Shown here piece by piece: positions 12,858 to 45,024 of a stretch of 64,000 nt of DNA. The stretch comes from Paraphysomonas bandaiensis (lineage: Eukaryota > Protista > Chrysophyceae). Each line of letters starts with the position of its first letter. Within the stretch, counting starts at the first letter, position 1. The notes under the pieces were generated by a model. It did no database searches and had not been told where the DNA came from. It saw only the letters and a program-made list of their open reading frames with translations. The stretch covers positions 186,001 through 250,000 of the forward strand of contig CBFFRP010000373.1 in NCBI GenBank assembly GCA_965644295.1, given 5' to 3'. The translations under genes and the position numbers were made by a program.

Positions 12858-13187
12858 AAGTCGGACTCGGACCTTCTTGTGGTGTTCTGGGAGATAAATA
12901 CCGGAGATATTTCTCCGGGAGACTAGCATGAGCGGCATATATAGTCAGCAGATATCAGATAGTGTCCTGCCCACTCATAGCCTAATGAGTGTGTGGTACA
13001 AGAAGGGACACTTACATAAGAGTCGCTTGCGTAAATGTCTTTGGGTCTTGACGAATGAACAGACACAAGCAGCTTTCGTAGCGCTAAGTTGTAGGATATC
13101 AGAGTTAAGGACTAGTTTGTTAAATTGTTTTGCTACATACGTTCTGAGTTTTACATGCCTAATCCTAATAATCAGACATTCACTACT
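12858..13187 (+). repeat. Hairpin-rich dispersed repeat, copy A (left and right ends joined)
   Basis: Aligns by eye with 54591-55026, 44445-44766 (reverse) and 45025-45160. Contains the CCGGAGA-tatt-TCTCCGG hairpin and ends CAGACATTCACTAC. Confidence 0.85.
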
Positions 13188-18860: not shown

Positions 18861-19209
18861 GGTTTTAACAGACCACACTCGTACACAACTCAATCGAAGG
18901 GCTTATGCATTTTTCTTCCGCTATCAAATTATTACACCTTAAATGATTAATACACTCAGCTGATAACAACCCTCAGCGTCTACTCTATATATGCGGTATA
19001 TATCGTATTAAACTGAAGTTCAAACAGTGTAGAGAAGTATATCTAGAATGAGGTGGAAGTGTGGTATACCGTATACAAAAATTAGGAAAGGAGGATGAAG
19101 GATGATATAATGGCGATAGATAGTCGTCTGTACCACATGATATAACTCCACTGGTATACCATGGGTATACAATTGAATACAGATGGATTTTAAAAGTGGA
19201 GATGCGATG

Positions 19210-19496
19210 CGTAGAGGAATGAGAGGATGTTCTTTTCAGTTTAGTACTTGAAGTGACTGTATAAGATATGCATAGGGCACATAGAGGTGTATGGTGTTAT
19301 ATTATGCAGTGTGTAGTGTACGGCTGTAGAATAGAGGCATAATTTCCTCTTACTGAGAAGTTCTGTAGTAACTATAAAGAGAACCTTGCTTTGACTACCT
19401 GTAGTGTAGACTGTGTGAAAGCAACGGGGGTATTCCGTCCGTTTATTGATTTGTAACATCCGTAACATTCGACCGAGTACCGTATTTTTCTCTGCG
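19210..19496 (+). repeat. 5' LTR of Copia-1 (287 bp, CGTAGAG...CTCTGCG)
   Basis: Direct repeat of 31814-32102. The only difference I see is GAAAGC vs GAAAAGGC. Confidence 0.95.
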
Positions 19497-19508
19497 TAAG
19501 AGGAAATT

Positions 19509-21065
19509 ATGAAGAAGACAACGAACGACAAGCCAACAAGATTTGCAAGATTCGGCAAGAAACCGAGCACAGATAGACCAGAACATATACCGACTTTAAG
19601 ATACGGTGCCAACTCGAACTTCGCCACATTCAAACAGAGGCTTGTAGTGGTGGGCATGCAAAAGTACGGTGATCTTGCACGCCTAGTAGAGCTGGACAAA
19701 TATTATGAGCCCGATGCGATAAACCCAGAGGATTTTGATTTGGAAGACGACCCCTATGGAGTTAACCTCGACCTGATGAAGGACAAGACCAAGACCAGAG
19801 GGAGATTAATAGACAAGATGCGGAACGATAGATCGGCATTCTACTCATTCATGGTAGACCATCTGAGCCACGAATCAATGGATGCAGTCAAGCTATTAGA
19901 TGAATACGAGCTCATGAACAGGACTAAGGATCCTCTACTACTATGGCTGGCTATCAAACAAACCCACAAAGTATCCACTAACTCCAGCGTAAGTACAGTG
20001 GTACGAGCAGAAGCGAGGAAAAGGTACAAAGACGCTAAACAGGGAGCATATGAGAGTATAGTTACTTATAAGGAGAGGTTTGATCATCTATTAGAAGCCT
20101 ACAAAGACATGAACAACGCGGAAATGAATGAAGAGGACATCGCGATGGATTTCTTCGAAGGGCTGGACGACATGAGATATGGCGATTTCAAAACTAGCTA
20201 TCTCAACGATCTAACAATGGGAACGCAAACAGCACCTACACATGTAAATGAAATATATACTAAAGCATCAAAATATCTAACGCCGAAGAGAGCAACGAGA
20301 GCAGGCGGCGGATCCGCATTCGTGAGCAAATCGAAGTCTGACAAAGGCAAGAAATCAGCAGATAGCGATGATACACCAGAGCAGCAACAAGGGAACGACA
20401 CGAAGTCGCACAACAGCAAACGTGGTCAGAAAAAAAGGCAGCTCATATGTTGGGGCTGCGGTGAGCCAGGCCACAGAATGAACGAATGCCCAGACAGTAG
20501 CCAAGAATCAGAAAACAAGCACTGCACGACAACAATGTTGAACGCCTTCACGTCAGGAAGCGAGCCATTCCAATGGTACGAGGTATTGCTCGATAACCAG
20601 GCTGATGTCTCAGTAGTACACCCAAGACTACTGAACAATGTAAGACCGGCGTCCAAAGGATGCACCGTGGCGGGATTATCGGGACACGCACTGGAACTAC
20701 CGAATGTAGGCGAGCTAGACCAATTCTTCACCTGTAAGACAGCGGATGAGCTAAGGGCAAGCGTACTATGTCAGGCGGACGTAGAAGACATATATGAAGT
20801 GACATATAGGCAGGGAGAGTCTTTCACTGTCCACTTACCTGACAGTGATTTGACTTTCTATCGAAAGAACAAGATGTATGTGGCCGACATGCGCGACTGG
20901 GCGACGGCCAAAGTCAACGTAACGACTGTAGCGGAGCGCGAAGCCCAATATTCGAAAGTAGAAGTCGCGAGAGCACGAGAAGCACGAGACCTGATCCGAA
21001 ACTCGGGCTTCGACTCGGAGAGAGATGCTGTGCAGCTAGTGAGCGACGGAAACGTTACAGGGGTG
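19509..21065 (+). CDS. Copia-1 gag-pol, 5' part (gag, CCHC knuckle, protease)
   Basis: CWGCGEPGHRMNEC knuckle and VLLDNQADVSVV protease-like motif. Joins in frame to 28969 (VTGV|RLTP) when the Gypsy and one GGTG are removed, giving 1461 aa. Confidence 0.93.
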
Positions 21066-22260
21066 TATGAACAACTCAGGTCTTGCAACCTAAGATCACT
21101 GAAAAGATATGTGAAATGGTTGTTTGTCGAAACAACGAAACAGAAAACTATAATAATAACTCTTTAAGAAACCAACAGCCAGAAACACAAGCTCCCCTGT
21201 ATCCTGCAATCTAAAGCTCCCAATAGACAGATCAGTCAACCAACTATGTTAATTTCATAGAGAATTATTATTAAAACTAAGTTACAAGCGAAACAAAAGA
21301 CAGACCCCTCTAGCCTAAAGACTCCTCCTCATACACAGGACATTGAATGCAACCACAACCGTACAATGTGCTCATACATGTACTACACTACATACGATTC
21401 TTATCCTACATCGTTTATAGTCAAAAACTCCCTGAAATACGCCTAAATAGGTCCTTTCCAAAAAACTCCGATTTTTGAGTCCAAAAACCCAAAAATCCCC
21501 AATTTTTTGAGAATTGCAGAAAATCGCCGATTTTCGAGCCACAAACACCCAAAAATGACAATATTCGATTCCACAAAAATTGCAAGCACATTTCATGACA
21601 ACGTGAAATACACAATCGCCAACTCATGCATAATACCGACAAAATGCAATCGGGTTCAAAAGCTTACAATCGAACGGTTAAATATCATTTCCTTGCAAGA
21701 GTGTGTACTTTAGACTGGACCATACAAATACACTCATATTCAGATCACTAACATGCCCATGACACCTCTGCATCTGCGTCCAATGGCACCTTACGAATTC
21801 CTCCCCATTCCGGAGAAAATCAACGGTGTATGGCAATGGGAAAATAATCGTATATCATAGTCCGGAACGATGAGCAAGCACATAGAGCTGTTCAAAAACA
21901 TCAGAAGACTTCTCATATCGATGGGTGGACTACGAATATCGCACATGCGGTACCAATCAATGCTTCCTGACCCAAAACGCTATGACACCGACTACCGTAT
22001 GGATATAGGCGTAAACCGACGGGTAGCAATCGCGTAGATCAAAGAAAACGTGTGTTCGAGGGTAAATCCTAGTTGTCTGTCGTCTTGCCCTCGTAATAAT
22101 AATCTGTATCTCTTGTTGTCACCAATCTTATACAAAACAAGCTACATATACCCTACATATTATGTTATCATATCGTTATTGCATTAATATAGTTATCAAT
22201 ATTATTATGATGATGTCATTAAACGTGTTAAAGGGTGTTATAAAAGCCCACGGCTTTACA
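21066..22260 (-). repeat. 3' LTR of Gypsy (1195 bp)
   Basis: Near-identical to 27772-28964, with one 2-nt indel seen (ATGTGAAATGG vs ATGTAATGG). Contains an imperfect ~59-bp tandem at ~21468-21557. Confidence 0.96.
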
Positions 22261-22263
22261 TTA

Positions 22264-22280
22264 CCCTTTCTCCCCCCCCC
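22264..22280 (-). other. Polypurine tract of Gypsy
   Basis: Minus strand reads GGGGGGGGGAGAAAGGG, then TAA, then the LTR start TGTAAAG. Confidence 0.9.
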
Positions 22281-22291
22281 GGATGCCGTAG

Positions 22292-25200
22292 CTACTCCTG
22301 AATAATTTTGGGATAAGCCGCAGCGAGCGACGCATCAACCAAAATCATGCGAGCAGGTTCAAAATCCTTCTGGGACCCCCAACAATAGACCAAATAGTTG
22401 TCGAAGGCATAGTTGGAACCGTTGAGATTAAAACGGGCGCTAATCTTGCGTTTGGAATTCTTGTGATACCAATGGGTGTACGTGAATTCCATGACATACG
22501 CGGCCGTGGCATAATCCGGTAAACCAAGACTCTCGTACCACAGGTCACCGTAGAAACTGAGATCAACATAAACAGTATCTCCAACCGACACTGTTGTGAT
22601 ATTCTCTTTCCTCATTGAAGAGATAAAACGCTTCGCCGTAAACGAGTCGTACGCGAGGTGTCGCAAGTAAGGCCTAGACTCACAAAAATCGTAATATGCC
22701 TCACACTGAATATCCGGTGTCCATGGAATGTCCAAGATATCGCCGTCCGCATACTTCACCTTGAAGACCATCGTAGATTTGGTTCGTGAATCTCCCGTAT
22801 ATGAAAGAATCTCCTCCACCTTAAATTGTTCATGGTCTCGCATCGCCGCCTCAATAGCCGAATCCTTATCTCCGAAAAATGGCTCAAGATCAGAGACAGA
22901 GTATTCCCGAATTCCCCCGGTAAGAAGATTTCGAATTTGAACATCATTCTTGTATTGCCGTACCACTTCGAAAGGACCCTTCATCCTCGAGGATAATTTC
23001 GGATGTGGTTTAGCACCAGCGTCGAACATAACAAAATCGCCTGGACAATACTGGTTTTGTTTGGCAGGATCCAAACCCGCTTCCGCTCGTTTCTCGACTA
23101 GAGACTTCTGGTAGTCTGCTGATATCTGACGAACAAGAGCTAAGTAATCGTTCAGCCTTTTCAACAGCTGATGAGACGGATCATTGTCTCTCCCCTGGGC
23201 GGCCAAAAGATTCTTATAGATAGAATCCTGGGACCCAAACGTCAGTTCGAATGCAGAATACCCCGTCTCACTACTCTCGTGGGTATTCAGAATGAACATG
23301 ATAGTGGCAAGTAACAGTTCGTCCTCCAAAACAGCATCAGCCTCGATTCGCTTGTCAAAACAAATAGCACGGATGTGACGAACCACTTCCTTAATAATAC
23401 GCTCACATCCGTTGACGTGCCTGTTGGCAATACTAAATACATGACGAAGTCCTGACAACTTAACCAGTTCTGCGAAAAGTTCTGATTTGAGATCAGGACC
23501 CATATCTGATATAATCATATCCGTGAGCCCGTATGTACACCAGCACTTCCACACTGCTGTAGCTAAATTGATAGCTGTCATTCCTTTCACCGCATATAGG
23601 CACACCAATTTCGTAAACAAATTAACCATGACCACAATATGCGTGTAACCAGATTTAGAAACAGGTGTAATAGCAACCGCGTCAATTCCCAAAGCACTCC
23701 TGGAATGAGGCGGTTTTAAATGTCTAGTGATAGGAATCAATCGCTGCTTCAGCTCTCGCCTATTCTTCTGACAGTTGATACATTCGTCCACGAAGTCTGC
23801 AACCACCTTGAAAGGCACGCCGTGTCCCGGAAATTGCCTACACAGACGTTTCCACGTCTCTTTCGCACCCCAGTGTCCTGCTTGCGCGTTGTGAACCTCT
23901 TTGATAGCCTGGTAATAATCTATCCTCTGTACCTCCGTAGGCGGCGCGATCTCTTGAACGTCGTCCTCAAAATCGTCTTTTTCAAAGATGTTATGCAGTG
24001 TCACGAAGTTCACTTCATCTGAGTCGAAATCGTCACTTTCGTCCACAAATCCGGACAAATACAGCAATCTTGACAAGCAATCCGCAACCACATTGTTCTT
24101 CCCTGGGATATGACGAATCAAAAAGTCAAAATCCTGCAAATAAATTCTCCATCGAATTATCTTCGCAACTTCTGATGCCTCCATCCACACAAGGTTGTTG
24201 TGGTCCGTCTCGATTGTAAATTTCTTTCCTCTCAGATAAAACGAAAATTTCTTGACTGAATAGAATATACCAAAACCCTCCTTCTCAATAGTACACCACT
24301 TCAAGGCTTGCTCTGACAATTTCTTGGAACAGATAGCAATAGTTTGCTGTTGAATCGGACTAGACCCAGTTCCCTCAACAGTCTGGAAAAGAATGCCTGC
24401 CACTCCATAGTCACTGGCATCTGTCCTAAGTGTCCACTCAAGATCATAATTCGGATAAAACAAAGCACAAGACTGTTGCAAACCACTCTTATAGTTTTCA
24501 AACTCCTGCCTATAATCGTGCTGCCATGTCGTTTCTTCCCAATTAAAACTACTCTTAGTCATATCCGTAAGATGTTTGACCAAATCTGAGTAATTCTGAA
24601 CAAATGGAGCAAAGAATACTCCCAGACCCAACAAAGATCTAATCTTCTTACATCTATTTCCATTCTCTGGAAAAGGAATCTTCAATAAAGCCTCTTTCCT
24701 ATCGTCCGTGAGCTCGAAACTATTGTGCCTTACCAAATAGCCAAAAAACTTGATCTCCCTAAATCCTAACCAGGTCTTTGCAAATTTCAACACAACTCCA
24801 TGTTCAATGCATCTATCCAGGAAAATCTCCAGCTTCTTATACGCATCATCAAAATCATGTGCCAATAACAGAACATTATCAAATATACACAGCGCCCATT
24901 CCAGATCTCCAAACAATTTGACTACCGCTTCTTGCAACACACTAATCCCTGGAGACACTCCCTCCGGAAGGAATAAAGGCTGAAATTGGCCCCACGGTGT
25001 TTGAACTGACAATTTTTCAGATGTGTTCTCATGCAACCTGATCTGATGGAACGCATTCGTGAGGTCAATGTCCATAAATATCTTATAGCCAATAATACGA
25101 TCCAACTCATGTCTTACATTAGGAACTGTATAGTGTGGACTTGGAATGTACTTGTTGATTTGCACGTAATCCCCACAAATCCTAATAAAAGGTTTCGTGG

Positions 25201-26230
25201 CTTTTGGCGCGATCACCAAACAAGAAGCCCACGGCGACCTACTAGGAACATAGATGTAACCACACAGTCTCCTAAACTCCTTCTCCGCATCCTCATATAA
25301 TCTAGGATTTACGGGTCTTGCCTTCGGCTTGATCCTAGGAGGCAAATTCTCAGCGAACTTGATGTTCAACGGATCCACTCCTTTTATACCTTCCCACCGC
25401 TCTGGAACAAATACCTCTACTCCCTTAGTCCTCAATAACTCCAGCACCGGTCGCGCTGCTGAGAACTCTGGAGACACGTGCTCACCAAACATATCCTCGA
25501 ACTCGCTCAAAGCTTCCTCTCTAGTCTTTCCAAGAAAACTTGAGGCAAATCCGAACTGCGAAGGGTCCGGAACATCCAATTCTTCAGGTGCTACCTCCCT
25601 ACTACTGTCACACCACGGCTGCAATAATTCTTCAACCGCATTCAACAACAAATCATCCTCGGTAACATCGTCCTCACGCCTTTTAATAAAACTTACTTCT
25701 GATTCAATTCGTTCAATAGTCCTTCCTTTAAGCATAAATAGAAAATAATCCCATAGATCCTTAACGATAGCCGGAAGTCCAATAATAATATCGTTGCTAC
25801 CCATATCAGCAACAATGAAATCCCCGTCATATAACACGAACTCTCCCTTGGAGTCTTCTCTCTCAAACCTCAATTTTAATTTCACTACAAAACTACACTT
25901 CATTCTCGACGTTTTATCGGCAAATCCTATAACTGTTTCTTTTTTTATGACTTTGTTTTCACACACATGATTTCTAAACGTCTCAAACAAATCCTTGGAA
26001 ATGAAGTTAGATGTTAGGGCTCCAGTGTCGAACAATATTCCACGCACAGATATTATATAGTTATCATCACATACAATGCTTCCCCCAGAATGAGCCAATG
26101 TCAAGTCTTTTCGTTCTCGCGTATTACAGACATTCATCAAATTTCTGAGGAAAACTCGACTAACAGTCTCAGGATCATTCAAACCGTACAATATTTCTTC
26201 GTGATCCTGCGAACCATTAGCCTCGCACAT
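22292..26230 (-). CDS. Gypsy pol: protease, RT, RNase H, integrase, chromo-like domain, extra C-terminal domain
   Basis: Protease LFDTGA; RT RICGDY, DIDLTNAFHQI, CIFDNVLL, KFFGY; RNase H TDASD, EKE, TDH, ADCLSR; integrase HxxxxGH..CINC and D/D/E (GIDAV, ISDMG, GCERI); chromo-like FKVEEILSY..FKVKY..W. Confidence 0.96.
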   Translation of the reverse strand: MCEANGSQDHEEILYGLNDPETVSRVFLRNLMNVCNTRERKDLTLAHSGGSIVCDDNYIISVRGILFDTGALTSNFISKDLFETFRNHVCENKVIKKETVIGFADKTSRMKCSFVVKLKLRFEREDSKGEFVLYDGDFIVADMGSNDIIIGLPAIVKDLWDYFLFMLKGRTIERIESEVSFIKRREDDVTEDDLLLNAVEELLQPWCDSSREVAPEELDVPDPSQFGFASSFLGKTREEALSEFEDMFGEHVSPEFSAARPVLELLRTKGVEVFVPERWEGIKGVDPLNIKFAENLPPRIKPKARPVNPRLYEDAEKEFRRLCGYIYVPSRSPWASCLVIAPKATKPFIRICGDYVQINKYIPSPHYTVPNVRHELDRIIGYKIFMDIDLTNAFHQIRLHENTSEKLSVQTPWGQFQPLFLPEGVSPGISVLQEAVVKLFGDLEWALCIFDNVLLLAHDFDDAYKKLEIFLDRCIEHGVVLKFAKTWLGFREIKFFGYLVRHNSFELTDDRKEALLKIPFPENGNRCKKIRSLLGLGVFFAPFVQNYSDLVKHLTDMTKSSFNWEETTWQHDYRQEFENYKSGLQQSCALFYPNYDLEWTLRTDASDYGVAGILFQTVEGTGSSPIQQQTIAICSKKLSEQALKWCTIEKEGFGIFYSVKKFSFYLRGKKFTIETDHNNLVWMEASEVAKIIRWRIYLQDFDFLIRHIPGKNNVVADCLSRLLYLSGFVDESDDFDSDEVNFVTLHNIFEKDDFEDDVQEIAPPTEVQRIDYYQAIKEVHNAQAGHWGAKETWKRLCRQFPGHGVPFKVVADFVDECINCQKNRRELKQRLIPITRHLKPPHSRSALGIDAVAITPVSKSGYTHIVVMVNLFTKLVCLYAVKGMTAINLATAVWKCWCTYGLTDMIISDMGPDLKSELFAELVKLSGLRHVFSIANRHVNGCERIIKEVVRHIRAICFDKRIEADAVLEDELLLATIMFILNTHESSETGYSAFELTFGSQDSIYKNLLAAQGRDNDPSHQLLKRLNDYLALVRQISADYQKSLVEKRAEAGLDPAKQNQYCPGDFVMFDAGAKPHPKLSSRMKGPFEVVRQYKNDVQIRNLLTGGIREYSVSDLEPFFGDKDSAIEAAMRDHEQFKVEEILSYTGDSRTKSTMVFKVKYADGDILDIPWTPDIQCEAYYDFCESRPYLRHLAYDSFTAKRFISSMRKENITTVSVGDTVYVDLSFYGDLWYESLGLPDYATAAYVMEFTYTHWYHKNSKRKISARFNLNGSNYAFDNYLVYCWGSQKDFEPARMILVDASLAAAYPKIIQE

Positions 26231-26233
26231 TTG

Positions 26234-27703
26234 TCAAGTCACTCCACCAGGCCTCGGCAAAATCTTTCGCGGCCCTTTGGAATCATCTGCCATCATCTGA
26301 GACAGCTTCTTCATCATCCATTTCCGGGTTTCCGTTGCAACTGCTCCATTATGACCCTGGACATGCTTACATTCCTTCCCTTTGTAGCAGTTCCCATACA
26401 ACGCATACGCAACGCAACCACGGGTTGGATTAACAGTCTTCTCTAGGTTCATCACCTGTTCTATAGCTTCCTTATCAGACTCTGGTTCGCCGAGCAACAT
26501 CTCCTCAACCTCATTCTCGAAATCATCATCTGACATCCCGTCATCCTTGACCACAACTATCGGGTCAACCTCCTTGTCATCTAAATCACTGTAGAAATCA
26601 TCCTCAACTCGGTCCGCAAACTGCACGTTGTTTAAAGATTTCGGTTTCTCCTTTGCAACGTATCCATTGTCCCGATTCCTCGAACTCCTTTGAATTTGCT
26701 TCCTACTGAAATCGGACCCTTCATAAGGCACCAATCTGATGTTCTTGGACGCCTCATAATGCTCACTCGCCTTGGAAACGTATGTATCCAGAAACTCTTC
26801 AACATTACCATAATTAGTATCCGTCACCCTTGGAATCTCAGCCAGAACTCGTTTGTTGTAAGACTCGTCGATCAACTCCAAAAATACTTGAGCCGATCCA
26901 AACTCTTTTCCTCCAACCGGCGGACACTTAGTACTATTGGCCTCCATCATGATAGTAAACGTACGCATAAAAATACTCTTTCGCTTCAAAATCTCTTGAA
27001 AAAACAGCTCATGTGTATTCGGCCGCACTGATTTCCAATCCAGTGGCTTAAAATATCTCAGCGCGTATCGCAAAGTCTCAATGAACTCAACTTTGGACAA
27101 CACCTTGGTCTCCTTAGCCATCATCTCACAGAATTTCTGAGCACTCAACTTAACAAACATTTTATCCGTCAAGCTATTGTTGAACATAAGCAGGTTCCGA
27201 ACACGCCTGCTAACTATCTGGGCTGGCTCAAGCTTAATCCCATTGATCTGTTCATATTCAAACCATTGGATGATAAACTTTGTAAAATCACTAAGCTCCA
27301 TCGAATCCAGAAAAATATGCTTATGGGATGGCTTTTCAACATTGATGATGACATGCTTTGGAACCTCCATTCCCTCTGAAGACTCAGCCTCCCTCATGAA
27401 TACAGATGTCCTTCGCTCTTTCTTCTTGCCTTTGTCGTCGGCAGCCCTGCCACTCTCTCTGGTATGTCCCTGCTGCTCTTCACGCTGGTCACGGATGGCC
27501 TCATCTACTTCCTTCTGAGCTTCCTCCAGCTCATTAACTAAAACTTCTTCATTAATAGACATTCTGGACTCCAGATTATCTACCCTACTGGCAGTTGCTA
27601 CACACAACTTAGTGACGTTCTCCAAATTGAGAGCAATTCCCCGTAACATTTCCTTAACTTCATCTAACTCAGATGAACCAACAGGACCCTCCGAATCAGA
27701 CAT
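26234..27703 (-). CDS. Gypsy gag (489 aa; coiled coil, CCCH-like finger)
   Basis: ORF directly after the 5' LTR and in the same frame as pol; C-x8-C-x5-C..H near the C-terminus. Confidence 0.88.
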   Translation of the reverse strand: MSDSEGPVGSSELDEVKEMLRGIALNLENVTKLCVATASRVDNLESRMSINEEVLVNELEEAQKEVDEAIRDQREEQQGHTRESGRAADDKGKKKERRTSVFMREAESSEGMEVPKHVIINVEKPSHKHIFLDSMELSDFTKFIIQWFEYEQINGIKLEPAQIVSRRVRNLLMFNNSLTDKMFVKLSAQKFCEMMAKETKVLSKVEFIETLRYALRYFKPLDWKSVRPNTHELFFQEILKRKSIFMRTFTIMMEANSTKCPPVGGKEFGSAQVFLELIDESYNKRVLAEIPRVTDTNYGNVEEFLDTYVSKASEHYEASKNIRLVPYEGSDFSRKQIQRSSRNRDNGYVAKEKPKSLNNVQFADRVEDDFYSDLDDKEVDPIVVVKDDGMSDDDFENEVEEMLLGEPESDKEAIEQVMNLEKTVNPTRGCVAYALYGNCYKGKECKHVQGHNGAVATETRKWMMKKLSQMMADDSKGPRKILPRPGGVT

Positions 27704-27771
27704 TTCGATATATATCTATAAACTACAATAATGATATCTTCACTTACGTGTTTTACCGTGAGTAAATTTAC

Positions 27772-28964
27772 TATGAACAACTCAGGTCTTGCAACCTAAG
27801 ATCACTGAAAAGATATGTAATGGTTGTTTGTCGAAACAACGAAACAGAAAACTATAATAATAACTCTTTAAGAAACCAACAGCCAGAAACACAAGCTCCC
27901 CTGTATCCTGCAATCTAAAGCTCCCAATAGACAGATCAGTCAACCAACTATGTTAATTTCATAGAGAATTATTATTAAAACTAAGTTACAAGCGAAACAA
28001 AAGACAGACCCCTCTAGCCTAAAGACTCCTCCTCATACACAGGACATTGAATGCAACCACAACCGTACAATGTGCTCATACATGTACTACACTACATACG
28101 ATTCTTATCCTACATCGTTTATAGTCAAAAACTCCCTGAAATACGCCTAAATAGGTCCTTTCCAAAAAACTCCGATTTTTGAGTCCAAAAACCCAAAAAT
28201 CCCCAATTTTTTGAGAATTGCAGAAAATCGCCGATTTTCGAGCCACAAACACCCAAAAATGACAATATTCGATTCCACAAAAATTGCAAGCACATTTCAT
28301 GACAACGTGAAATACACAATCGCCAACTCATGCATAATACCGACAAAATGCAATCGGGTTCAAAAGCTTACAATCGAACGGTTAAATATCATTTCCTTGC
28401 AAGAGTGTGTACTTTAGACTGGACCATACAAATACACTCATATTCAGATCACTAACATGCCCATGACACCTCTGCATCTGCGTCCAATGGCACCTTACGA
28501 ATTCCTCCCCATTCCGGAGAAAATCAACGGTGTATGGCAATGGGAAAATAATCGTATATCATAGTCCGGAACGATGAGCAAGCACATAGAGCTGTTCAAA
28601 AACATCAGAAGACTTCTCATATCGATGGGTGGACTACGAATATCGCACATGCGGTACCAATCAATGCTTCCTGACCCAAAACGCTATGACACCGACTACC
28701 GTATGGATATAGGCGTAAACCGACGGGTAGCAATCGCGTAGATCAAAGAAAACGTGTGTTCGAGGGTAAATCCTAGTTGTCTGTCGTCTTGCCCTCGTAA
28801 TAATAATCTGTATCTCTTGTTGTCACCAATCTTATACAAAACAAGCTACATATACCCTACATATTATGTTATCATATCGTTATTGCATTAATATAGTTAT
28901 CAATATTATTATGATGATGTCATTAAACGTGTTAAAGGGTGTTATAAAAGCCCACGGCTTTACA
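27772..28964 (-). repeat. 5' LTR of Gypsy (1193 bp)
   Basis: Direct repeat of 21066-22260; element-strand termini TGTAAAG...GTTCATA. Confidence 0.96.
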
Positions 28965-28968
28965 GGTG

Positions 28969-31797
28969 CGACTTACCCCGAGTGATATCAGAAGAGCTTT
29001 TGACATATATGGGAGACCGTTCGAAGCGGTGAGAGGCAAGCAGACGAATAAGAAAGTCAGCCGGCAATACGCGGATCCGGAACTGAAGGCAGAACAGCAG
29101 AAGGAGCAAAGGCTGTACACAGACATCTTCAGTGTGAGACAGCAATCGTTCATGCTCACGCTAGCGGAACCATTGGGACTAACCATCGTTACTTCACTCG
29201 AAAACGAAACAACGGATCAGTTGGGATTGGCCCTACAGGAACAAGTAAACCTGTTAAGAAGCTACGGGTACATACCGACAGTTACCTACCTGGACCCTCA
29301 GCCGGGATTCAAGGCCCTGAGAGGCAAGATCACAGGGATGGAGATTGACGTGGCAGGGGCTGGAGATCACCTGGACAAGATCGACGCGAAGATTAGGCGA
29401 CTCAAAGAGACAATACGCAGTGTACATTCAGGGCTACCATGGAACCTACCAGATGCCAACGTCAGAGACCTGGTGAGATACGCCAACAGCCGCATGAACT
29501 TGAGGAGGCCATCCACCAATGGCACAACTGTAGCACCGCGAGTGGCATTGACTGGTCGGAAACCCAATTATAAAAAGGAACTGTCACTGGCTTTCGGGGA
29601 CTACGTAGAATGCTATGACCCGAAGGTCAAGAGCAATAACGCGGAGCAGGCCAGAACAGAACCATGTATCGCGCTGTACCCATCCGGCAACGCAAACGGG
29701 AGTTGGATATTTTTAAACCTTAAAACAAATAAATATGTGAGTAGGACCAACTGGGTGAAGATGGTGACCACGCAAATAGTAATAGACGCCGTGAACAGAA
29801 TATCGTCATTGCACAACAAGTCACACTCACCTGTCACGACCAGCGAGAATGAGAGTCGAGAGATTGAGGATACCACGCCACCAGCTGAGAATGACGAGAT
29901 CGATAAGCCGAAGGAGCCTCACGAGGAGGGGCAGATGACAGCAGTTGACACAGACGAAGGGCACGGCCACACAGAAGAGAGAGAGAGAACAAAAATCACG
30001 GAACCAGTCGACGATGATGGCGACCGGGCTGATGGGCCGAGCGAACAGGAGCCGGGCGCTGCAACACCCAACGACATCGACGATCCGGAATTTACAGGGG
30101 TGGAAACTGCAGGGATGACACATAACACAAGCGAACTACTATCATCATCATCATCAGCCGGAGCAAGGATAGCGGCAGGCACAAGAAGAAAGCCCGTAAT
30201 GTATCGAGCCTATCACACAAGCGTAACCAAAGGTTTAAAGGAACACGGCAAAGAAGCCTACCTGGCGATAGTACGGGAGCTGAAGCAGCTGCTGCATGAA
30301 AAAAAGGCGATAGTTCCAGTACACCGGAGTGACCTATCAAAGACTCAACTCAAACGAACAATTCGATCGCTGATGTTTTTGAAGACGAAATACGACGGAC
30401 TCGGAAGGTTCGAGAAAATCAAGGCGAGGCTGGTTGCGAACGGGGCACAGCAGGATCGGAAACTGTACCCAGACACGTCGTCACCCACTGTGGACATACA
30501 GTCAGTATTTGCATGCCTAGCAATAGCAGCGAGAGAGGGGAGACATGTATCGACAATTGATATAGGTGGTGCATACCTCAATGCGGAGATGTCAGGCGAA
30601 GAGGTAATAATGGAATTGGAGCCGATGTTGGCCACAATACTCAGAAAACTAGACCCCACAATCCAGCCGTATGTTGATGAAAGAGGCAAAATATTGATGC
30701 GCCTAGACAAAGCGTTATATGGATGCGTGCAGAGCGCCAAGCTCTGGTACAACACGATAAGAGCTTACCTGGAGAGCATTGGTTTCGTGGCTAACCCGGT
30801 GGATCAGTGTGTTCTCAATAGGACTGTCAACGGCAAGCAGTGCACTATAACACTACACGTGGACGATCTGCTAGTGCTATCACAAGACAAGCGTGACACC
30901 GAGTGGTTGGTGGAACAACTAAAGAAACAATATGGTGAGGTAAAATACTGTGATGACAAAGACATGTCGTATTTAGGTATGCATGTGAGCATGATAGATG
31001 ACAGGGCAGTGGTGTCAATGAGGGCTTACCTAGACGGAGTGCTGGAGGAGGCAGCGGTCACTGGCAGAGCAGCATCTCCAGCGACATCATCACTGTTCGC
31101 AGAGGGCGCAGGACAGAAATTGGGGAGGAAGGAGGCTGCCAATTTCCATTCAGTGGTGGCCAAATTGCTATATCTGTCAATAAGAGTTAGACCAGACATC
31201 CTGCTCAGTATAGCGTACCTCACAACAAGAGTGAAGGGTCCGACAATCGGAGATCAGCAGAAGTTGAATCGAGTGCTGAAATACCTTGCGCACACAAGGG
31301 ATCAAGATCTGCAGCTGAAGATTGGAGAGCAGCTGCGGGTAAGAAGCTTCATCGACGCTTCGTTCGCCACCCACGAAGACGGAAAAGGGCATACAGGCGT
31401 GGTTGTACAGCTTGGAGGGGCCACAGTACTATGCCGATCAACTAAGCAACGAATCGTGACGAAAGACTCGACCGAATCCGAGCTGGTCGGCCTATCTGAT
31501 ATGATGTCTAATGCAATGAGATTACATGAGTTTGTGTGTGGGCAGGGCTATGCGCTTGACCCACCTGTTATTTATCAGGACAACTTGTCGAATCTCAGTC
31601 TCGTAACGAAAGGAGGAGGCAAATACCGATCGAAATATCTACGAGTAAGGCAGGCTTTAGTCGAAGAACACCATGATAGGGGAGACGTGAAGCTTCAGTA
31701 CTTACCTACAGGAGAGATGTTGGCTGATGTGCTGACTAAACCCCTACAAGGAAAATTGTTTCGTCATTTGATATGTCTGATCGTTGGGAACGAGTAG
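28969..31797 (+). CDS. Copia-1 gag-pol, 3' part (integrase, RT, RNase H)
   Basis: RT: KARLVANG, DIGGAYL, KALYGCVQSA, LHVDDLL. RNase H: IDASFA, STESEL, YQDN, ADVLTKPLQG. Confidence 0.95.
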   Translation, partial: RLTPSDIRRAFDIYGRPFEAVRGKQTNKKVSRQYADPELKAEQQKEQRLYTDIFSVRQQSFMLTLAEPLGLTIVTSLENETTDQLGLALQEQVNLLRSYGYIPTVTYLDPQPGFKALRGKITGMEIDVAGAGDHLDKIDAKIRRLKETIRSVHSGLPWNLPDANVRDLVRYANSRMNLRRPSTNGTTVAPRVALTGRKPNYKKELSLAFGDYVECYDPKVKSNNAEQARTEPCIALYPSGNANGSWIFLNLKTNKYVSRTNWVKMVTTQIVIDAVNRISSLHNKSHSPVTTSENESREIEDTTPPAENDEIDKPKEPHEEGQMTAVDTDEGHGHTEERERTKITEPVDDDGDRADGPSEQEPGAATPNDIDDPEFTGVETAGMTHNTSELLSSSSSAGARIAAGTRRKPVMYRAYHTSVTKGLKEHGKEAYLAIVRELKQLLHEKKAIVPVHRSDLSKTQLKRTIRSLMFLKTKYDGLGRFEKIKARLVANGAQQDRKLYPDTSSPTVDIQSVFACLAIAAREGRHVSTIDIGGAYLNAEMSGEEVIMELEPMLATILRKLDPTIQPYVDERGKILMRLDKALYGCVQSAKLWYNTIRAYLESIGFVANPVDQCVLNRTVNGKQCTITLHVDDLLVLSQDKRDTEWLVEQLKKQYGEVKYCDDKDMSYLGMHVSMIDDRAVVSMRAYLDGVLEEAAVTGRAASPATSSLFAEGAGQKLGRKEAANFHSVVAKLLYLSIRVRPDILLSIAYLTTRVKGPTIGDQQKLNRVLKYLAHTRDQDLQLKIGEQLRVRSFIDASFATHEDGKGHTGVVVQLGGATVLCRSTKQRIVTKDSTESELVGLSDMMSNAMRLHEFVCGQGYALDPPVIYQDNLSNLSLVTKGGGKYRSKYLRVRQALVEEHHDRGDVKLQYLPTGEMLADVLTKPLQGKLFRHLICLIVGNE

Positions 31798-31813
31798 ACA
31801 CATCACAGGGGTG

Positions 31814-32102
31814 CGTAGAGGAATGAGAGGATGTTCTTTTCAGTTTAGTACTTGAAGTGACTGTATAAGATATGCATAGGGCACATAGAGGTGTATGGTG
31901 TTATATTATGCAGTGTGTAGTGTACGGCTGTAGAATAGAGGCATAATTTCCTCTTACTGAGAAGTTCTGTAGTAACTATAAAGAGAACCTTGCTTTGACT
32001 ACCTGTAGTGTAGACTGTGTGAAAAGGCAACGGGGGTATTCCGTCCGTTTATTGATTTGTAACATCCGTAACATTCGACCGAGTACCGTATTTTTCTCTG
32101 CG
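31814..32102 (+). repeat. 3' LTR of Copia-1 (289 bp)
   Basis: Direct repeat of 19210-19496, followed by the TSD CGATG. Confidence 0.95.
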
Positions 32103-37509: not shown

Positions 37510-38644
37510 ATAGACGAGACTTTCTACCAGTGGATGATATTTCACCTGATGACACACGAGCTTGATCTAATACATGTATATATAATCCTTTATTTTATTG
37601 ATAGTTGAAGGTGGGCAGGTATATGTTGGATATTTCGTTTCATATTGTCGAATTTTAGTGTTAAAGTACCATTGCAGGATAATATTGAAGCTAAATTGGT
37701 AGATTTTACTTTGTTATGAGTAATGTAAATTAATGACGAAGTATGCTTGCAGAATACGAAGGTGTTATTGAGCTATATTCTTTAACCTAGTCCTATTGGT
37801 TGAAATAACCTCTTCGAAATAATGAATAATTCTCAGTAGGCAAATTTCAGTGAAAAACTTGTTGTAAATTAGTATTATCCGCATTAATATCTTTAAGTAA
37901 AGATAAGTTGAATCAACAAAAAACGGTTCTACTAAAGATTACTACAACAGAGATGCAAATCGCGTGCTAGGGTTTGGAAATTATACAAAAGTATTCAAAA
38001 TCTTGTGAATAGCGCTGGATAGTAGTACAACCAAACATGAAAGAATTATGCTTGTCTGCCTCACACAGATACCCTTTATTACGGTGCCTGTGCGGCATTA
38101 TGCTATGCGTGATTTGTAATAGTCATCACTCACATGTATAGAAGTTTGTTGGAAATTACTCATCCTTAACAAGATCTCACGGAGAATTTGTCGTTAGACT
38201 AGATAGATTTATTAATGTCGTTTACACAAAGTTGTGATACAAACAACACATATTGAAAATCTGATTATTAAGAAGCGCAAGCTTGTGCGTTGCCGCGACC
38301 AACCTAACAACTCGCGCGACACTATGCATAACATGACTCTCATCTAGTTACTATTGCATGCACCGACTGTTGAGATCTGAAGATTCTATATACTTGCAAT
38401 TGAGTGCAGTATTATGTGAGATGCAAGGATCGAAAGATATATATGTAATTAGTACATTATATTATGTAGTATGAAACTGAAGTAGAAGTGGATGACTATA
38501 CAGGATACGATAACTGAGTGTGTGGTTTGTACACTATAGTAGTAAATGAATGGTGTTGAACACATCGAACACAACTTAGGTTCTTTATCATGTAATGTTT
38601 ATAATTTCATCTTATCAGTTGAGAATAGTAAACCTTAGCAAATA

Positions 38645-41600
38645 ATGTCAACTTCTGTTATGGTAGCGAATGCTAGTTGTAGGGATGGGGAAGATGACAA
38701 GAAGCTACGGTTTGACAAGAACCAAGCAGACTATTCAGCGAGAAAAATCAAGATGCATCTAATGAAGAAAAACCGAAACCATCTTGGTTTGGAGGACCCG
38801 CCAGCCGGAGGAAGGAATTTAGAGTCATGGAGAGAGCGTAATGATACCTGTGTTAGTACTATTTGGGAGGCTTGCGAGCATGACCCTGATGTGTTGGAGG
38901 TAGCCAATCAATATTTGGAGGGGAAGACAATTTTACCTGCTGATGATCCTGCTAAGGAGGTGTTATCCAGTGAGCTCCTTCAGACACTGGTTGATAGGTT
39001 CAGAGGCGAGATTGGGACTGTATTGGAGAAGACTACGGCAGAATACCATTCGTTCAAAATAAGGCCGGGGGAAAAGGTGTCTGTTGGGGTAGATCGACTG
39101 AACGGTATAATCCAGAAGCTCATAAAATTGGGACAACCGCAGACAGAGGCAAGTAAATTAGCAAAGATAAAAGCAGCGCTGCAGATAGAGGAATTACATG
39201 ATTTATGGATGTCGGTAGCGATGATGCCTAAAGCAACAACTACATTTGATTCGGTGAAAGAGGCTTGTGAAGAGTATGACGAGGCTATGACGCAGCTGAA
39301 GAAACTAAAGGGAGACAAATCTGAAGAGATCAATTTTACGGCGTCGAAGGAGCCAGTGGTTTGTTCATTTTGTCGGAAGAAGGGACATGTAGCAGCGAAT
39401 TGTTATGCTAAGGAACGACAAAGAAAAATGGATAAGTTCAAAAGAAAAGGGAAGACAAAGGAAAAGGCTTCGAAGAGTGTGCAGCAGCCAGGATCAAAGG
39501 ATTATACTGGTTGTCATATCTGTGGAGATTTTAGTCATAAAGCCCGACAGTGCAAGTCGAAAAAACGGAAGAACATAAAAAACCCGGATAATGAGAATCC
39601 TCGAAAATCGAACAGGAAATTCGAGACAGAATGGAAGAAATACGTCAACGACGGAGAGTCGTCGGATGATGAAGCGAATATGTTTGGAGAAGAGGTTTTG
39701 CTATCGGTGGATACGTCGGAAGAACCTCGTGTATATCTGGACAGTTGTGCAAGTAAAAGACTGTTTATAGTAAAGGATAAAATTGCACTGGAGTCATTTA
39801 CTCCTGAGTTTGGGGCAATCCAACTAACTAGAAAGGGTTCTCAATTGGAGACACAGGGAACTGGTACATTCGGGGAATGGAGAGACATCAGAGTTAGTGA
39901 AGAAGCGGTGAAGAACATTGTGTCAGGAGGAATGCTGAGATCAATGGGATACGGATTACAACTGCTTCGAAAGCCTAAAATCGTGGAATTGGACTCTGGA
40001 AACGAGGTGTTGACTGGAGAGTACGATGAGCATGGAGGAATGCCGTATGTGGACTTGATGGAGGTGTTAAATCTGCCAAATGTGTCTATGTGCAATCAGA
40101 TGGAGGAGGTAAATTTGTCGGATAATACAGGACAAGATGCGTTGGATCGCTTACATGAGCGTACTGGACATGTCTCGAAATCGAAGTTAATAGAAGCTCA
40201 CCGACACATGTTATTCAGAGGATCAGGACTACAACGACATCACCTTTCGAAGGCAAAGGAGAAGAGTTGCAAGAAACCCCTGTGTAAATGGTGTGCCAAG
40301 GCGAAGATAACCAGGCATTCGTTCAAATCACGGGACAACGAAGAGCTAAGCGCAGTCAGGTTTCTGGAACGAGTGACAGCGGACATCTCAGTCTACCTGA
40401 ATTGTGAATCCAGACAAGGGTATAAGTACGTGCTCCTATTCACGGACTTAGCAACAAAGATGATATGGGAATATGGATTGAGGACTCGAAGCGGAGAGGA
40501 GGTGTTCAAATGTCTAAGACACTTGTGCGAGGTCCACTTAGTGAAGTACGAGGGGTGGAACCGTATAGTGGAGTATCATGCCGATGGAGGATCCGAACTT
40601 ATTAGTCAGCAGATAAGAGAGTATCTGTTGCAGCGATATGGGACTCGGGTGTCACATACAACACGAGACACGCCAGAGCTCAACGCGGTGTCTGAGAGGA
40701 AATTCCGAACAATTGGGGAGATGACACTGACGATGTTGACGGCATCTGGACTTCCAAAGTCGTTCTGGTTTGATGCTTATCAAACTGCATGTTACATTGT
40801 GCGACGAATGCCAACTCGGACGTGGCAAGGATGGATGTCTCCATATGAGTGTGTCCCAGGGGGGAGCGTTCCCAGCCTATCGTGGCTACGGAAATGGGGG
40901 TGCAAAGCATATGTGCTAACACCCAAGGCCGACAGGAGGAAGGACTGGGAGGACAAAGCAATGACAGGTTATTTCATAGGGTATCCAGCTGATCGAAAAG
41001 GATACAAGGTGCTAGTGGGGGACACCGTAGTACACTCTGTACATGTATTATTTGATGAATCGGTACCTGAGAGGTCTCAGGATTATTATAGAGAGCTGGA
41101 GGAGGCTCAAGTGGCTATAGATCCCGAGGCTCGTCAACCGGGTGAGTTTGAGTATCTTATCGGAAAGCACCATGAGGATGGTGGTCTGCTATACAAGACT
41201 AACAGAGTGGTGATAAGGAAGGGACTTATTGTGGGATACCGGTCGTTGGTTACTGGTAACCAGGTTCAAGTGGAGGATAAAACTCCTATTCATATTGCTG
41301 ACATCAAGAAGATGACAGAGGATCTTGCGCAGAGGGTGGTTAGGGCCAGAGTTACTGACAACCGTGACGGCGGTATCAGCGGAGTGGTGCCACAGCAGTC
41401 GGAAAGTGGGCAGGTGCAGCCCCAGGCTGACTCAGCATTACCTTCGGGGGAAGGGACCCCTGCCGAGAATCATCCGCACGGCAAACGCGCAAGAACTCCA
41501 AGGACGGTAACGAATGTGTCGGTGTTAGGACAAATCCATCATTTGAGTGATGAGAGTGATGTGAGTGACCTTTTACAGGAGGCAGACTCAGTAGTGTGGA

Positions 41601-43246
41601 TGTCAGCGGAAGAGTCGACAGTGCCTCAGACACATCGTGAGTCCTTGGAGAGTGCCGAGCACAGGGAGTGGAGACGAGCTCGCCGTGTAGAGCGAGAGGG
41701 TTTGGCGAAGCGAGATACCATGGAGGTGACTCGTATACCGGACGGAGTCGTCCCACTGCACTCCAAGTACGTCTATGGAAAGAAGTACGATAAGGAGGGA
41801 GAGGTCCGCCGATATAAGGCTCGTCTTGTAGCAATCGGTTGTGGACAGCAGTCGAGTGGTTGGGCGAACCATTTCGCACCCGTTGTTAAGGGGGTAACAG
41901 TGCGACTGTTAATCGCCATAGCTTTCGTGATGAACATGGTAATTCATCAACTGGATGTGTCTAACGCATTTCTATATGCAGATATAGAGGGGGATGTATA
42001 TATGAAGGCAACTCCGGACTTTCAGCTGCCTGAGGGGTACTGCTTTAAGTTGAAGAAGTCGTTATACGGGCTTCGGAGTTCCCCGCGGTCGTGGTGGAAA
42101 ACATTGGATAAATTCATACGATCTATGCATTTTAAACCATGTGTATTAGACCCGTGTTTGTATTATCAGTATAAGGGTGATGAATTGATATTATTAACGA
42201 TATATGTGGATGATATCCTAGTGTTAGGTCGTGATGTCAACATAGTGAAGGATATTAAAGCTCAACTGTGTGCCCGGTTTGATATGAAGGATATGGGCGA
42301 GATGGAACATTTTCTGAATGTTCGAGTCACAAGAACGCCAGAGTATATTCGTCTTGACCAATCAGTATATGCGGCTAAGATCTTAGAAAAGTTTGAAAAG
42401 TATCTTGGGTCACCGCGAAAGGTACGGAAGAGTCCTCTACCGGCGGAAGCAATGGATTTAGTGGCAAAAGGGGCACGGCATGAGCATACCGAGGAGGAAC
42501 AGCTTATAGTAGATAACTTCCCATATCGGCCGCTGATAGGTGCATTACTATATCTCTCGATGAACACGAGGCCGGATATTGCCTATGCAGTGGGAGTACT
42601 GTCTCGGTTCAGTAATAAGGTGAATATTGAAGTATGCAAGCTATTAACACATGTATGGCAATATATTCGTGGTTCTATTGACAAAGGGATTCAATATGGG
42701 AGTAGACGGTTCGACTTCCATATGTTTACTGACGCGGATTGGGCGGGAGATCAGCTCTCCAGGAAGTCCACGTCGGGGTACGTTGGGTTTGCAGCGGGAG
42801 GGCCTATAGTCTGGCAGTCCAAACTGCAGACGACAGTGGCAACGTCAAGCATGCAGTCTGAGTATCAGTGTATTTACTCGGGTCTCCAAGAAGTGCTATG
42901 GGTTCGGGGGGTGACGGGTGAGATTAAGTTGAGGCTCATCAAACCCACACCATTCTTCATCGACAGTCAGAGTGCCCAGGATTTGGCCGAAAACCCAGTG
43001 TTTCACAAGAAGTCGAAGCACATTGAGATTAAGTATCACATGGTGAGAGAGCACGTGGATCCCAATCAGTTCAATACGATTAAGTTAGTGCATGTGCATA
43101 CATCGCAACAAGCAGCAGATATTTATACAAAGTCATTGGTTGGTTTATCATATATGGAGCAGAGAAAGAGAAATCTTGGAGAGAAAGTTAAGAGTTCCAC
43201 TGAAGTGATTAATGAGGGACCAAGGGATAAAAGAAGGCGCAAGTAG
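38645..43246 (+). CDS. Copia-2 gag-pol polyprotein (1533 aa)
   Basis: Two CCHC knuckles; protease YLDSCAS; integrase HERTGH..CKWC and D-D-E (TADIS, HADGG, SERKF); RT YVDD; RNase H DADWAG..ADIYTK. Confidence 0.96.
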   Translation: MSTSVMVANASCRDGEDDKKLRFDKNQADYSARKIKMHLMKKNRNHLGLEDPPAGGRNLESWRERNDTCVSTIWEACEHDPDVLEVANQYLEGKTILPADDPAKEVLSSELLQTLVDRFRGEIGTVLEKTTAEYHSFKIRPGEKVSVGVDRLNGIIQKLIKLGQPQTEASKLAKIKAALQIEELHDLWMSVAMMPKATTTFDSVKEACEEYDEAMTQLKKLKGDKSEEINFTASKEPVVCSFCRKKGHVAANCYAKERQRKMDKFKRKGKTKEKASKSVQQPGSKDYTGCHICGDFSHKARQCKSKKRKNIKNPDNENPRKSNRKFETEWKKYVNDGESSDDEANMFGEEVLLSVDTSEEPRVYLDSCASKRLFIVKDKIALESFTPEFGAIQLTRKGSQLETQGTGTFGEWRDIRVSEEAVKNIVSGGMLRSMGYGLQLLRKPKIVELDSGNEVLTGEYDEHGGMPYVDLMEVLNLPNVSMCNQMEEVNLSDNTGQDALDRLHERTGHVSKSKLIEAHRHMLFRGSGLQRHHLSKAKEKSCKKPLCKWCAKAKITRHSFKSRDNEELSAVRFLERVTADISVYLNCESRQGYKYVLLFTDLATKMIWEYGLRTRSGEEVFKCLRHLCEVHLVKYEGWNRIVEYHADGGSELISQQIREYLLQRYGTRVSHTTRDTPELNAVSERKFRTIGEMTLTMLTASGLPKSFWFDAYQTACYIVRRMPTRTWQGWMSPYECVPGGSVPSLSWLRKWGCKAYVLTPKADRRKDWEDKAMTGYFIGYPADRKGYKVLVGDTVVHSVHVLFDESVPERSQDYYRELEEAQVAIDPEARQPGEFEYLIGKHHEDGGLLYKTNRVVIRKGLIVGYRSLVTGNQVQVEDKTPIHIADIKKMTEDLAQRVVRARVTDNRDGGISGVVPQQSESGQVQPQADSALPSGEGTPAENHPHGKRARTPRTVTNVSVLGQIHHLSDESDVSDLLQEADSVVWMSAEESTVPQTHRESLESAEHREWRRARRVEREGLAKRDTMEVTRIPDGVVPLHSKYVYGKKYDKEGEVRRYKARLVAIGCGQQSSGWANHFAPVVKGVTVRLLIAIAFVMNMVIHQLDVSNAFLYADIEGDVYMKATPDFQLPEGYCFKLKKSLYGLRSSPRSWWKTLDKFIRSMHFKPCVLDPCLYYQYKGDELILLTIYVDDILVLGRDVNIVKDIKAQLCARFDMKDMGEMEHFLNVRVTRTPEYIRLDQSVYAAKILEKFEKYLGSPRKVRKSPLPAEAMDLVAKGARHEHTEEEQLIVDNFPYRPLIGALLYLSMNTRPDIAYAVGVLSRFSNKVNIEVCKLLTHVWQYIRGSIDKGIQYGSRRFDFHMFTDADWAGDQLSRKSTSGYVGFAAGGPIVWQSKLQTTVATSSMQSEYQCIYSGLQEVLWVRGVTGEIKLRLIKPTPFFIDSQSAQDLAENPVFHKKSKHIEIKYHMVREHVDPNQFNTIKLVHVHTSQQAADIYTKSLVGLSYMEQRKRNLGEKVKSSTEVINEGPRDKRRRK
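38661..38670 (+). other. Primer binding site of Copia-2 (TGGTAGCGAA)
   Basis: TGG abuts the 5' LTR and is complementary to a tRNA CCA end. The first 8 nt equal the yeast Ty1 iMet PBS; the tRNA identity here is not verified. Confidence 0.75.
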
Positions 43247-44444
43247 GTACTGAGTTTTTTAGACAGAGGTTTAGACTTAGAGATGAGTCTATTTTACTGT
43301 CAAGAATTTTTTTATCTCAGGCATTCAATAGCTGGGAGGCGTCATAGTACAACACTCAATTGAGGGGGAGTGTTGAGATCTGAAGATTCTATATACTTGC
43401 AATTGAGTGCAGTATTATGTGAGATGCAAGGATCGAAAGATATATATGTAATTAGTACATTATATTATGTAGTATGAAACTGAAGTAGAAGTGGATGACT
43501 ATACAGGATACGATAACTGAGTGTGTGGTTTGTACACTATAGTAGTAAATGAATGGTGTTGAACACATCGAACACAACTTAGGTTCTTTATCATGTAATG
43601 TTTATAATTTCATCTTATCAGTTGAGAATAGTAAACCTTAGCAAATAATGTCAACTTCTGTTACCGACAAGTGCTCAACTATACAACACGATTTAGTTAG
43701 CTACATGGGCATACGACGAGTTGCGTGTTTAAGCCGGATCATACGCTCCTGCCCAATCTACTTGTCCTAATACAAACAACTTGCGGTCGGTGTCTTCGGC
43801 ATATGTCTCCTGTATATGCGGCAGATCTTTAGGGCCCTCTTCAAGGTGGTGTTCACAGCAGCAGGTAGTCTGGAAGGGAGAATAAAGTAGCTCTATAGCG
43901 CCGGGTCCTCCCACGGTCACGAAGCGGTCTCACTGGTGCAATTTTGCACACTGACGCATGAAACAGACATCTACCAAAATCTGTTACAAATTCAAGCTGA
44001 CTCCAATGTCTTCCCTCCATTGTGTGCACTCATCCAGCACATGCATCCACCTTGCACTCTTCTCCCGACGAGTGACTTACACTAGTAGGAAACCGTGCAC
44101 CTTCCCCGCTCGGATGAAAACCTACTAAGCAAGAATAACATAAAAGCACCACAAATGTACCTGACACTGCTTGGAGAACAGTGCCAGAGCCTTGATATAA
44201 TCTCAATGACCTGGGTCAGGAGAAACCAAGACTAGGCAGTAGACGTGTGAGAAGACATGACAGGTCTAATCACATCATTGCCATTGCCATGCATCCATGA
44301 GGAAAGTTTGACGCATTACCTCGGTCATTGGCCACACAGATACCGAATAATGTGAACTCATACTCAGCATCAATCACTCAAATCAAACGCAGGGAGCAAG
44401 CAGAATGTTGATATACCTGACATCTGCTGACTTCAGGTGTTTTG

Positions 44445-44766: not shown

Positions 44767-45024
44767 ACAAACAACACAAACTCATTTTGTTCCACTCAGA
44801 ATATCCTACATATGCGTGGGATACTAAACATATCTTGAAAGATCAAACTATAAAGTTATCGAGGCCTTAGCTTTCCATATTTTTGATGAAGACGCACAAT
44901 TATCTGCTTATGTATAACAATAATGTGTCCCACCAGTCCTGCTAATACTGAAAATCGATGTGCATAAATGGCATCAATAAATTTAACTCCCTTGTCATGT
45001 TATACTCGCCACCCAGCAAAGGAT

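Follow-up and report, generated by a model that had tools for sequence, protein, structure and literature searches.

Negative-strand RNA virus polymerases are active with a GDN motif, which places an asparagine at the position of the last aspartate of the YxDD motif of reverse transcriptases (RTs). The birnavirus RNA-dependent RNA polymerase (RdRp), an active right-hand polymerase but not an RT, shows a natural ADN motif with Asn at the same position, which the cited passages call an invariant Asp in all RTs (PMC3394715). Bacterial G2L5 group II-like RTs show a conserved natural DD-to-DN change and are presumed inactive by their authors; they belong to an unrelated RT class and are not mobile (PMC2602772, cited passages). 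In elements with long terminal repeats (LTRs), the change has been engineered: according to the cited passages, Ty1 D211N keeps polymerase activity, with kpol reduced 223-fold and a preference for Mn2+, but loses transposition, the mutation is partly suppressed by RNase H mutations and the residue is linked to metal A (PMC2148107), and Ty3 D214N behaves in the same way, with polymerisation in vitro and no transposition (PMC5371799). Kuafuorterviruses have lost the Tyr and kept DD (PMC11673190, cited passages). The window analysed here, a 64,000-nt stretch of Paraphysomonas bandaiensis (contig CBFFRP010000373.1, positions 186,001 to 250,000), contains an intact, recently inserted Ty3/Gypsy copy with the same Asp-to-Asn change at the same position as the engineered Ty1 and Ty3 mutants, except that here it is natural, fixed and carried by a fresh insertion. 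Natural DD-to-DN is already known in G2L5 RTs and birnavirus RdRp, and what appears to be new is a Ty3/Gypsy clade carrying it. An FDN/DN Gypsy clade was not found described in the open-access literature, Repbase and subscription journals being outside the search, and the cited passages of PMC5348765, PMC6934838 and PMC6317226 do not describe one.

The RT features on which the comparison rests, with residues numbered in the pol frame, are the following:

24875..24886, minus strand: RT motif C, I450-F451-D452-N453, at the YxDD position with N for the second Asp (codons, Ty3 alignment, alignment of relatives)
25064..25072, minus strand: RT motif A, D388-I-D390, with D390 the canonical catalytic Asp and D388 a clade-specific acid at -2 (Ty3 alignment and alignment of relatives)
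24962..24964, minus strand: RT motif B, E424 of PEG, Met or Phe in outgroups (alignment of relatives)
24644..25411, minus strand: reverse transcriptase domain, pol aa 275-530 (Pfam RVT_1; AlphaFold2 model matching the RTs of Moloney murine leukaemia virus (MMLV), Ty3 and cauliflower mosaic virus (CaMV))

The minus-strand codons ATA TTT GAT AAT at 24886-24875 encode I-F-D-N in the context WALC-IFDN-VLLL. In the alignment to the Ty3 RT (4ol8), these residues fall on Y-L-D-D and LPEG falls on MPFG. D-I-D is paired with T-L-D, which makes the second D of DID the catalytic Asp of motif A. A preliminary description of the window had reported IFDN in place of YxDD, an intact first catalytic Asp and LPEG in place of MPFG, and all three are borne out by the codons and the alignment; it overlooked the acidic residue that is co-fixed at position -2 relative to the Asp of motif A. 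That IFDN is a sequencing or assembly error, or the mark of a single mutated dead copy, is refuted. The same letters are present in the contigs of all four public runs that cover 24000-25500, which argues against an assembly error (these contigs show four variant places, none of them in the motif), and the N is common to all 260 relatives described below. IFDN is present in nine of the ten listed members of the cluster at ≥90% identity; the remaining member is a 342-aa fragment that lacks the RT. DD at this position, which the preliminary description had proposed to look for in sister copies and reads, occurs neither in the contigs of the four runs nor in the 260 rows.

Relatives of the RT were taken from public contigs and protein clusters and pooled from the best 120 of 378 and the best 150 of 33,995 matches (336 of the latter at E<=1e-30); after duplicates and the window's own protein were dropped, the set holds 261 rows including the window, and the counts rest on the matches listed. 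P0226, which has YMDD and only 26% identity, is an ordinary Gypsy RT; with this row set aside, 260 remain. The outgroup contains 124 Gypsy RT rows from the longer-protein searches and the searches with protein P0365. At position 453, every one of the 260 listed relatives has N, the most distant of them at about 40% identity, and the outgroup shows D in 124 of 124. The Asn453 codon is AAT in 10 and AAC in 11 cases (20 of 29 metagenome loci plus the window; nine loci were unparsed), and D452 is kept in 259 of 260 rows. Position 450 is aliphatic in the clade (I, L, M or A), versus Y in 108 and F in 16 outgroup rows, and position 451 is F in 242, H in 10 and Y in seven clade rows. Position 388 in the clade is D in 246 rows, E in seven, N in five and a gap in two, so all side chains within the clade carry a carbonyl; the outgroup has V in 55 rows, K in 26, T in 21, S in 10 and rarer letters, with one acidic residue in 123. 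Position 424 is E in 259 clade rows and D in one, versus M in 94 and F in 26 outgroup rows, and position 433 is L in 256 clade rows versus F in 120 outgroup rows. The retained RT residues, all counted in 260 rows, are K344 (257), R351 (260), D390 (259), F/Y395 (259), K486 (256) and the primer-grip G498 (253), which we take to be HIV-1 K65, R72, D110, Y115, K220 and G231, and K483 is present in 253. Positions 388, 424 and 453 presumably correspond to HIV-1 V108, Q151 and D186, so that the Q151 equivalent is Glu in the clade. The other domains are also conserved: protease D69 in 214 of 217 rows, RNase H D605, E652, D677 and D718 in 228, 226, 225 and 222 of 228, and the integrase HHCC and D-D-E residues in 207-210 of 210. 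Matches in the ESM Atlas are generic RVT_1 clusters only. The stretch is matched in public runs labelled marine, seawater or hydrocarbon metagenomes and in two coded organisms; contig depths are not taken as copy number or expression, and runs X19-X24, with a small share or none, were excluded.

In a quick IQ-TREE of 101 RT rows (40 of the 260 DN rows, 18 of the 81 rows of the P0365 group, which has YIDD, and 43 others), the DN rows form one branch with a Shimodaira-Hasegawa-like approximate likelihood ratio (SH-aLRT) of 100 and a stem of 1.78; Copia, BEL, caulimovirus and named reference clades are outside all the trees. The RNase H and integrase trees join the DN clade with the YIDD P0365 group (FastTree support 0.997 and 0.98), as does an IQ-TREE of RNase H plus integrase with 60 rows (SH-aLRT 98). 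The RT tree alone, in which the DN stem is long, does not join them, and the sister relationship relies on the RNase H and integrase trees. The DN stem has a length of 1.4 in the RT tree, about twice that in the RNase H (0.59) and integrase (0.77) trees, and the crown depths are alike (1.09, 0.84 and 0.99, respectively). A long RT stem with similar crown depths indicates that the RT changed in a burst and was later under ordinary constraint. Profiles of the clade protease, RNase H, integrase and GPY/F module score the P0365 group far above other Gypsy rows, whereas the clade RT profile scores it lower (median 72 versus 89 bits). A DN profile of the GPY/F-plus-downstream region matches 76 of 81 sister rows; Pfam Chromo is present in 23 of 30 sister proteins and was not detected in the C-terminal region of the window or in the 11 DN proteins scanned. 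A scan of prokaryote genome contigs with P0365 gave no match. Gypsy elements of loci L050-L091, many of the YIDD sister type, are in prokaryote genome bins and are most likely mis-binned eukaryotic contigs.

The clade RT is under purifying selection. Its ratio of nonsynonymous to synonymous substitution rates (dN/dS) is 0.00-0.11 in 13 close pairs of 17 unsaturated ones and 0.19-0.40 in four near-saturated pairs, and these values are similar to those of RNase H and integrase. The 13 close pairs lack independence, all of them belonging to two sets of loci. The proposal that [IV]FDN is conserved under purifying selection is thus upheld for N453 and for the low dN/dS, while the first two letters vary. 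With N fixed in the listed relatives, both Asn codons in use and low dN/dS, the earlier view of a remodelled D..DN lineage, and not one dead copy, is sustained. The RT of an LTR element normally acts from its own Gag-Pol, and this counts against a dead RT that would serve RNase H and packaging as a mere scaffold while a YIDD relative, for instance from the sister group, supplied the cDNA in trans. Such a scaffold is also hard to reconcile with the retention of D390, D452, R351, K344 and K486 across about 40% identity at the counts given above, with an RT dN/dS equal to that of RNase H and integrase, and with zero reversions to DD in 260 rows. Simon and Zimmerly read the DD-to-DN change of G2L5 as a loss of activity (PMC2602772, cited passages), and the palindromic primer site described below is common to the YIDD sister group; both would suit a dead RT, which is nevertheless very unlikely. 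The DN site is real and clade-wide and, judging from the sequences, probably functional, and conservation, dN/dS and LTR identity indicate that the clade RT is very probably catalytically active.

The AlphaFold2 model of the RT, built on 84 alignment rows, has a predicted local distance difference test score (pLDDT) of 92.6 and a predicted template modelling score (pTM) of 0.85, and matches the RTs of CaMV, MMLV (TM score 0.81) and Ty3, the last with Z 31.2 and a root-mean-square deviation of 4.1 over 388 aligned residues. In the model, D388 and D390 share one strand (model residues 121-127), so they should face the same side, and N453 starts the return strand of motif C (189-194). In a low-depth mean-field covariation analysis, pairs 388-496 (primer grip) and 388-488 (motif D) are near the top of 24,310 pairs, and the covarying pairs 391-454 and 389-456 set an approximate strand register. 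These pairs hint that position 388 may be flanked by N453, motif D and the primer grip. A review describes a pocket of HIV-1 RT whose inhibitors contact V108, D110, D186, H221 and F227 (PMC12828086, cited passages).

In the favoured reading, to which we give a probability of roughly 0.55, D390 and D452 would bind two metals as usual and D388 would compensate for the lost third carboxylate. D388 and D390 would share one face of their strand, with D388 on the primer-grip side and diagonal to N453. There it could be a ligand of metal A, either direct or water-mediated, or it could accept a hydrogen bond from the amide of N453 and so leave the carbonyl of that residue facing the metal. The accompanying repacking would comprise Y-to-I at 450, x-to-F at 451, F-to-L at 433 and M/F-to-E at 424. 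Because D388 likely backs up the lost metal-A ligand, the enzyme would likely be active. A compensating change is expected, since the D-to-N mutants of Ty1 and Ty3 lose transposition, yet second-site suppressors exist in Ty1; and as the engineered mutants polymerise in vitro but cannot transpose, the clade would be a natural suppressor case. The preliminary description treated both YxDD aspartates as near-invariant metal ligands, and this is to be amended: the second is the least essential of the catalytic triad, since these mutants still polymerise in vitro. A stronger form, advanced tentatively and at somewhat less than even odds, is that motif A has taken over the third catalytic carboxylate from motif C, making a single-strand DxD metal site (DxD...DN) and a natural intragenic suppressor of the substitution that stops Ty1 and Ty3 from transposing.

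The main rival, a two-carboxylate enzyme in which the third Asp is dispensable or tuned down, as in the birnavirus ADN, has a substantial but minority chance. D388 and E424 would then have other jobs, such as salt bridges to K483 and K486 or R351, primer-grip packing or dNTP selection, and the presence of K483 in 253 of 260 rows fits this. In the rival's favour, the cited passages report polymerisation in vitro by Ty1 D211N (PMC2148107) and Ty3 D214N (PMC5371799), and in the birnavirus enzyme an Asn that still binds an ion, with GDD raising activity (PMC3394715); the same D-to-N change, however, abolishes transposition of Ty1 and Ty3 in vivo. Position 388 of the clade is never K, T, V or S, though these are dominant outside, which also speaks against this rival. 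The five N388 rows point the other way: four are in near-full-length pol proteins of 1206-1382 aa, and at their site there would be two carboxylates only, although each has D sisters. Further points weigh against compensation by D388. Activity of the clade RT is read from sequence, and the known Ty1 suppressors map to RNase H and not to motif A. Because many changes share the long RT stem, a single co-fixed residue on one branch is one event and not evidence of correlation, and one stem cannot tell which co-fixed change compensates. The matches listed stop at about 40% identity, the range down to about 27% being uncovered, so that intermediates are possible. Finally, the geometry proposed for D388 comes from secondary structure, weak covariation and HIV-1 RT numbering.

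The remaining features of the element and its insertion site, including the target site duplication (TSD), are:

22292..26233, minus strand: pol frame with protease, RT, RNase H, integrase, GPY/F module and C-terminal extension (open reading frame, Pfam, conserved residues)
22292..26233, minus strand: pol catalytic residues, namely protease D69; RNase H D605/E652/D677/D718; integrase HHCC and D851/D910/E944
26234..27715, minus strand: gag frame, closed by a TGA that keeps the pol frame (context TGA-CAA; likely readthrough)
27761..27772, no strand: perfect 12-nt palindrome that starts on the final 5' LTR base and replaces a tRNA primer-binding site (PBS)
27772..28964, minus strand: 5' LTR, TG...TA
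21066..22260, minus strand: 3' LTR
22264..22280, minus strand: polypurine tract (PPT)
21062..21065 (left copy) and 28965-28968 (right copy), plus strand: 4-bp TSD, GGTG
19208..32102, plus strand: Copia element hosting the Gypsy insertion (context only)

The pol frame is uninterrupted over 1313 aa and the gag frame over 493 aa, with one in-frame TGA between them; Pfam finds RVT_1, RT_RNaseH, Integrase_H2C2 and rve in pol, in Gypsy order. The LTR pair shows zero mismatches and one 2-nt gap. The uninterrupted frames, the LTRs differing by one small indel and the perfect TSD of the preliminary description are therefore all present. On the element strand the termini are TG...TA rather than TG...CA (window 21066 and 28964), and a contig of run X1 joins 21060 to 28965 and so shows Copia copies without the Gypsy insertion (empty site). 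Terminal repeats of the metagenome loci are short assembly overlaps and were left out of copy dating. The element shows the Ty3/Gypsy structure: two LTRs, PPT, TSD, the order protease, RT, RNase H and integrase (PR-RT-RH-IN), an RVT_1-type RT and a Gypsy-type RNase H. It lacks YxDD (xxDN in 260 of 260) and a tRNA PBS; since YxDD is typical of Ty3/Gypsy and not defining, it is filed as a Ty3/Gypsy variant. It shares with Ty3, whose RT (4ol8) is the best PDB sequence match (E 7e-21), a gag-pol with PR-RT-RH-IN, LTRs, PPT, a short TSD and GPY/F, and differs in IFDN for YLDD, DID for TLD, PEG for PFG, the TG...TA termini and the absence of a tRNA primer site. Gag and pol are joined in frame over a single stop, mostly TGA followed by C, in the window (26231-26236) and in loci L001, L002, L004, L010, L012, L014, L015, L025 and L020, likely by readthrough, and L006, L011 and L018 have one fused gag-pol frame. 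A C-terminal domain (window 22295-22590, pol aa 1215-1313) is present in 187 DN rows and in no outgroup row, and P0364, a long relative of the window pol, shows Pfam PF03372 in addition to the pol domains.

No TGG follows the 5' LTR, and the palindrome at 27761-27772 stands there instead. Fourteen elements with sequence upstream of the first open reading frame were surveyed, namely the window's own and those of 13 loci. Palindromes of 10 nt or longer lie within 250 nt of the ATG in 13 of the 14, and palindromes of 12 nt or longer in 11, against a background of 75 and 28 of 375 windows, respectively. The letters differ among elements and the symmetry is kept; L019 has none, and those of L007 and L018 are possibly due to chance. 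By eye, a palindrome of this kind is also visible in eight loci of the YIDD sister group (L032, L049, L053, L064, L065, L072, L073 and L080) and absent from two (L058 and L082). The palindrome thus predates DN, and a strict link, by which the DN site arose for palindromic priming, is rejected because the YIDD sister loci share it. Self-priming of the Tf1/sushi type was also rejected, the best duplex of the 12-22 nt after the LTR with the LTR being equalled by 14-90 of 100 shuffles. According to the cited passages, tRNA-free Gypsy groups are already described (PMC6317226), and the fungal GalEa Copia elements have a Conserved Hairpin Site, a palindrome including the last A of the 5' LTR that replaces the PBS, and an RT with QTDD (PMC5445492). 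GalEa is alike in the palindromic site in place of the PBS and in the loss of Tyr, and unlike in being Copia and keeping both aspartates; in addition, no conserved downstream complementary copy of the palindrome is evident in the DN-clade elements.

Elsewhere in the window, at 20729-31706, RNA-type contigs (X15 and X17) reveal GT-AG introns, at least 10 in number, on the minus strand, antisense to the flanking Copia pol, and one of these introns spans the Gypsy insertion site. The joined antisense exons contain no open frame above 120 aa (15 further joints are not included), and the transcript may be a spliced non-coding RNA. A second intact Copia is located at 38365-43663, with a 1535-aa frame and 296-nt LTRs with one mismatch. 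A dispersed repeat, possibly a miniature inverted-repeat transposable element, has three diverged copies (78-89% identity) at 12858-13186, 44446-45160 and 54406-55026.

Ever since the Ty1 and Ty3 mutants were studied, it has been a puzzle that the third RT aspartate is required in vivo and yet dispensable in vitro. Here, hundreds of families in one clade appear to transpose with Asn and, together with their YIDD sister group, offer matched natural enzymes and one candidate suppressor residue. Annotation that filters on YxDD will score DN elements as dead. The clade might yield RTs whose fidelity or metal properties are unusual and, if the DxD...DN arrangement holds, may show altered metal use, or altered dNTP selection through the Glu at the Q151 position.
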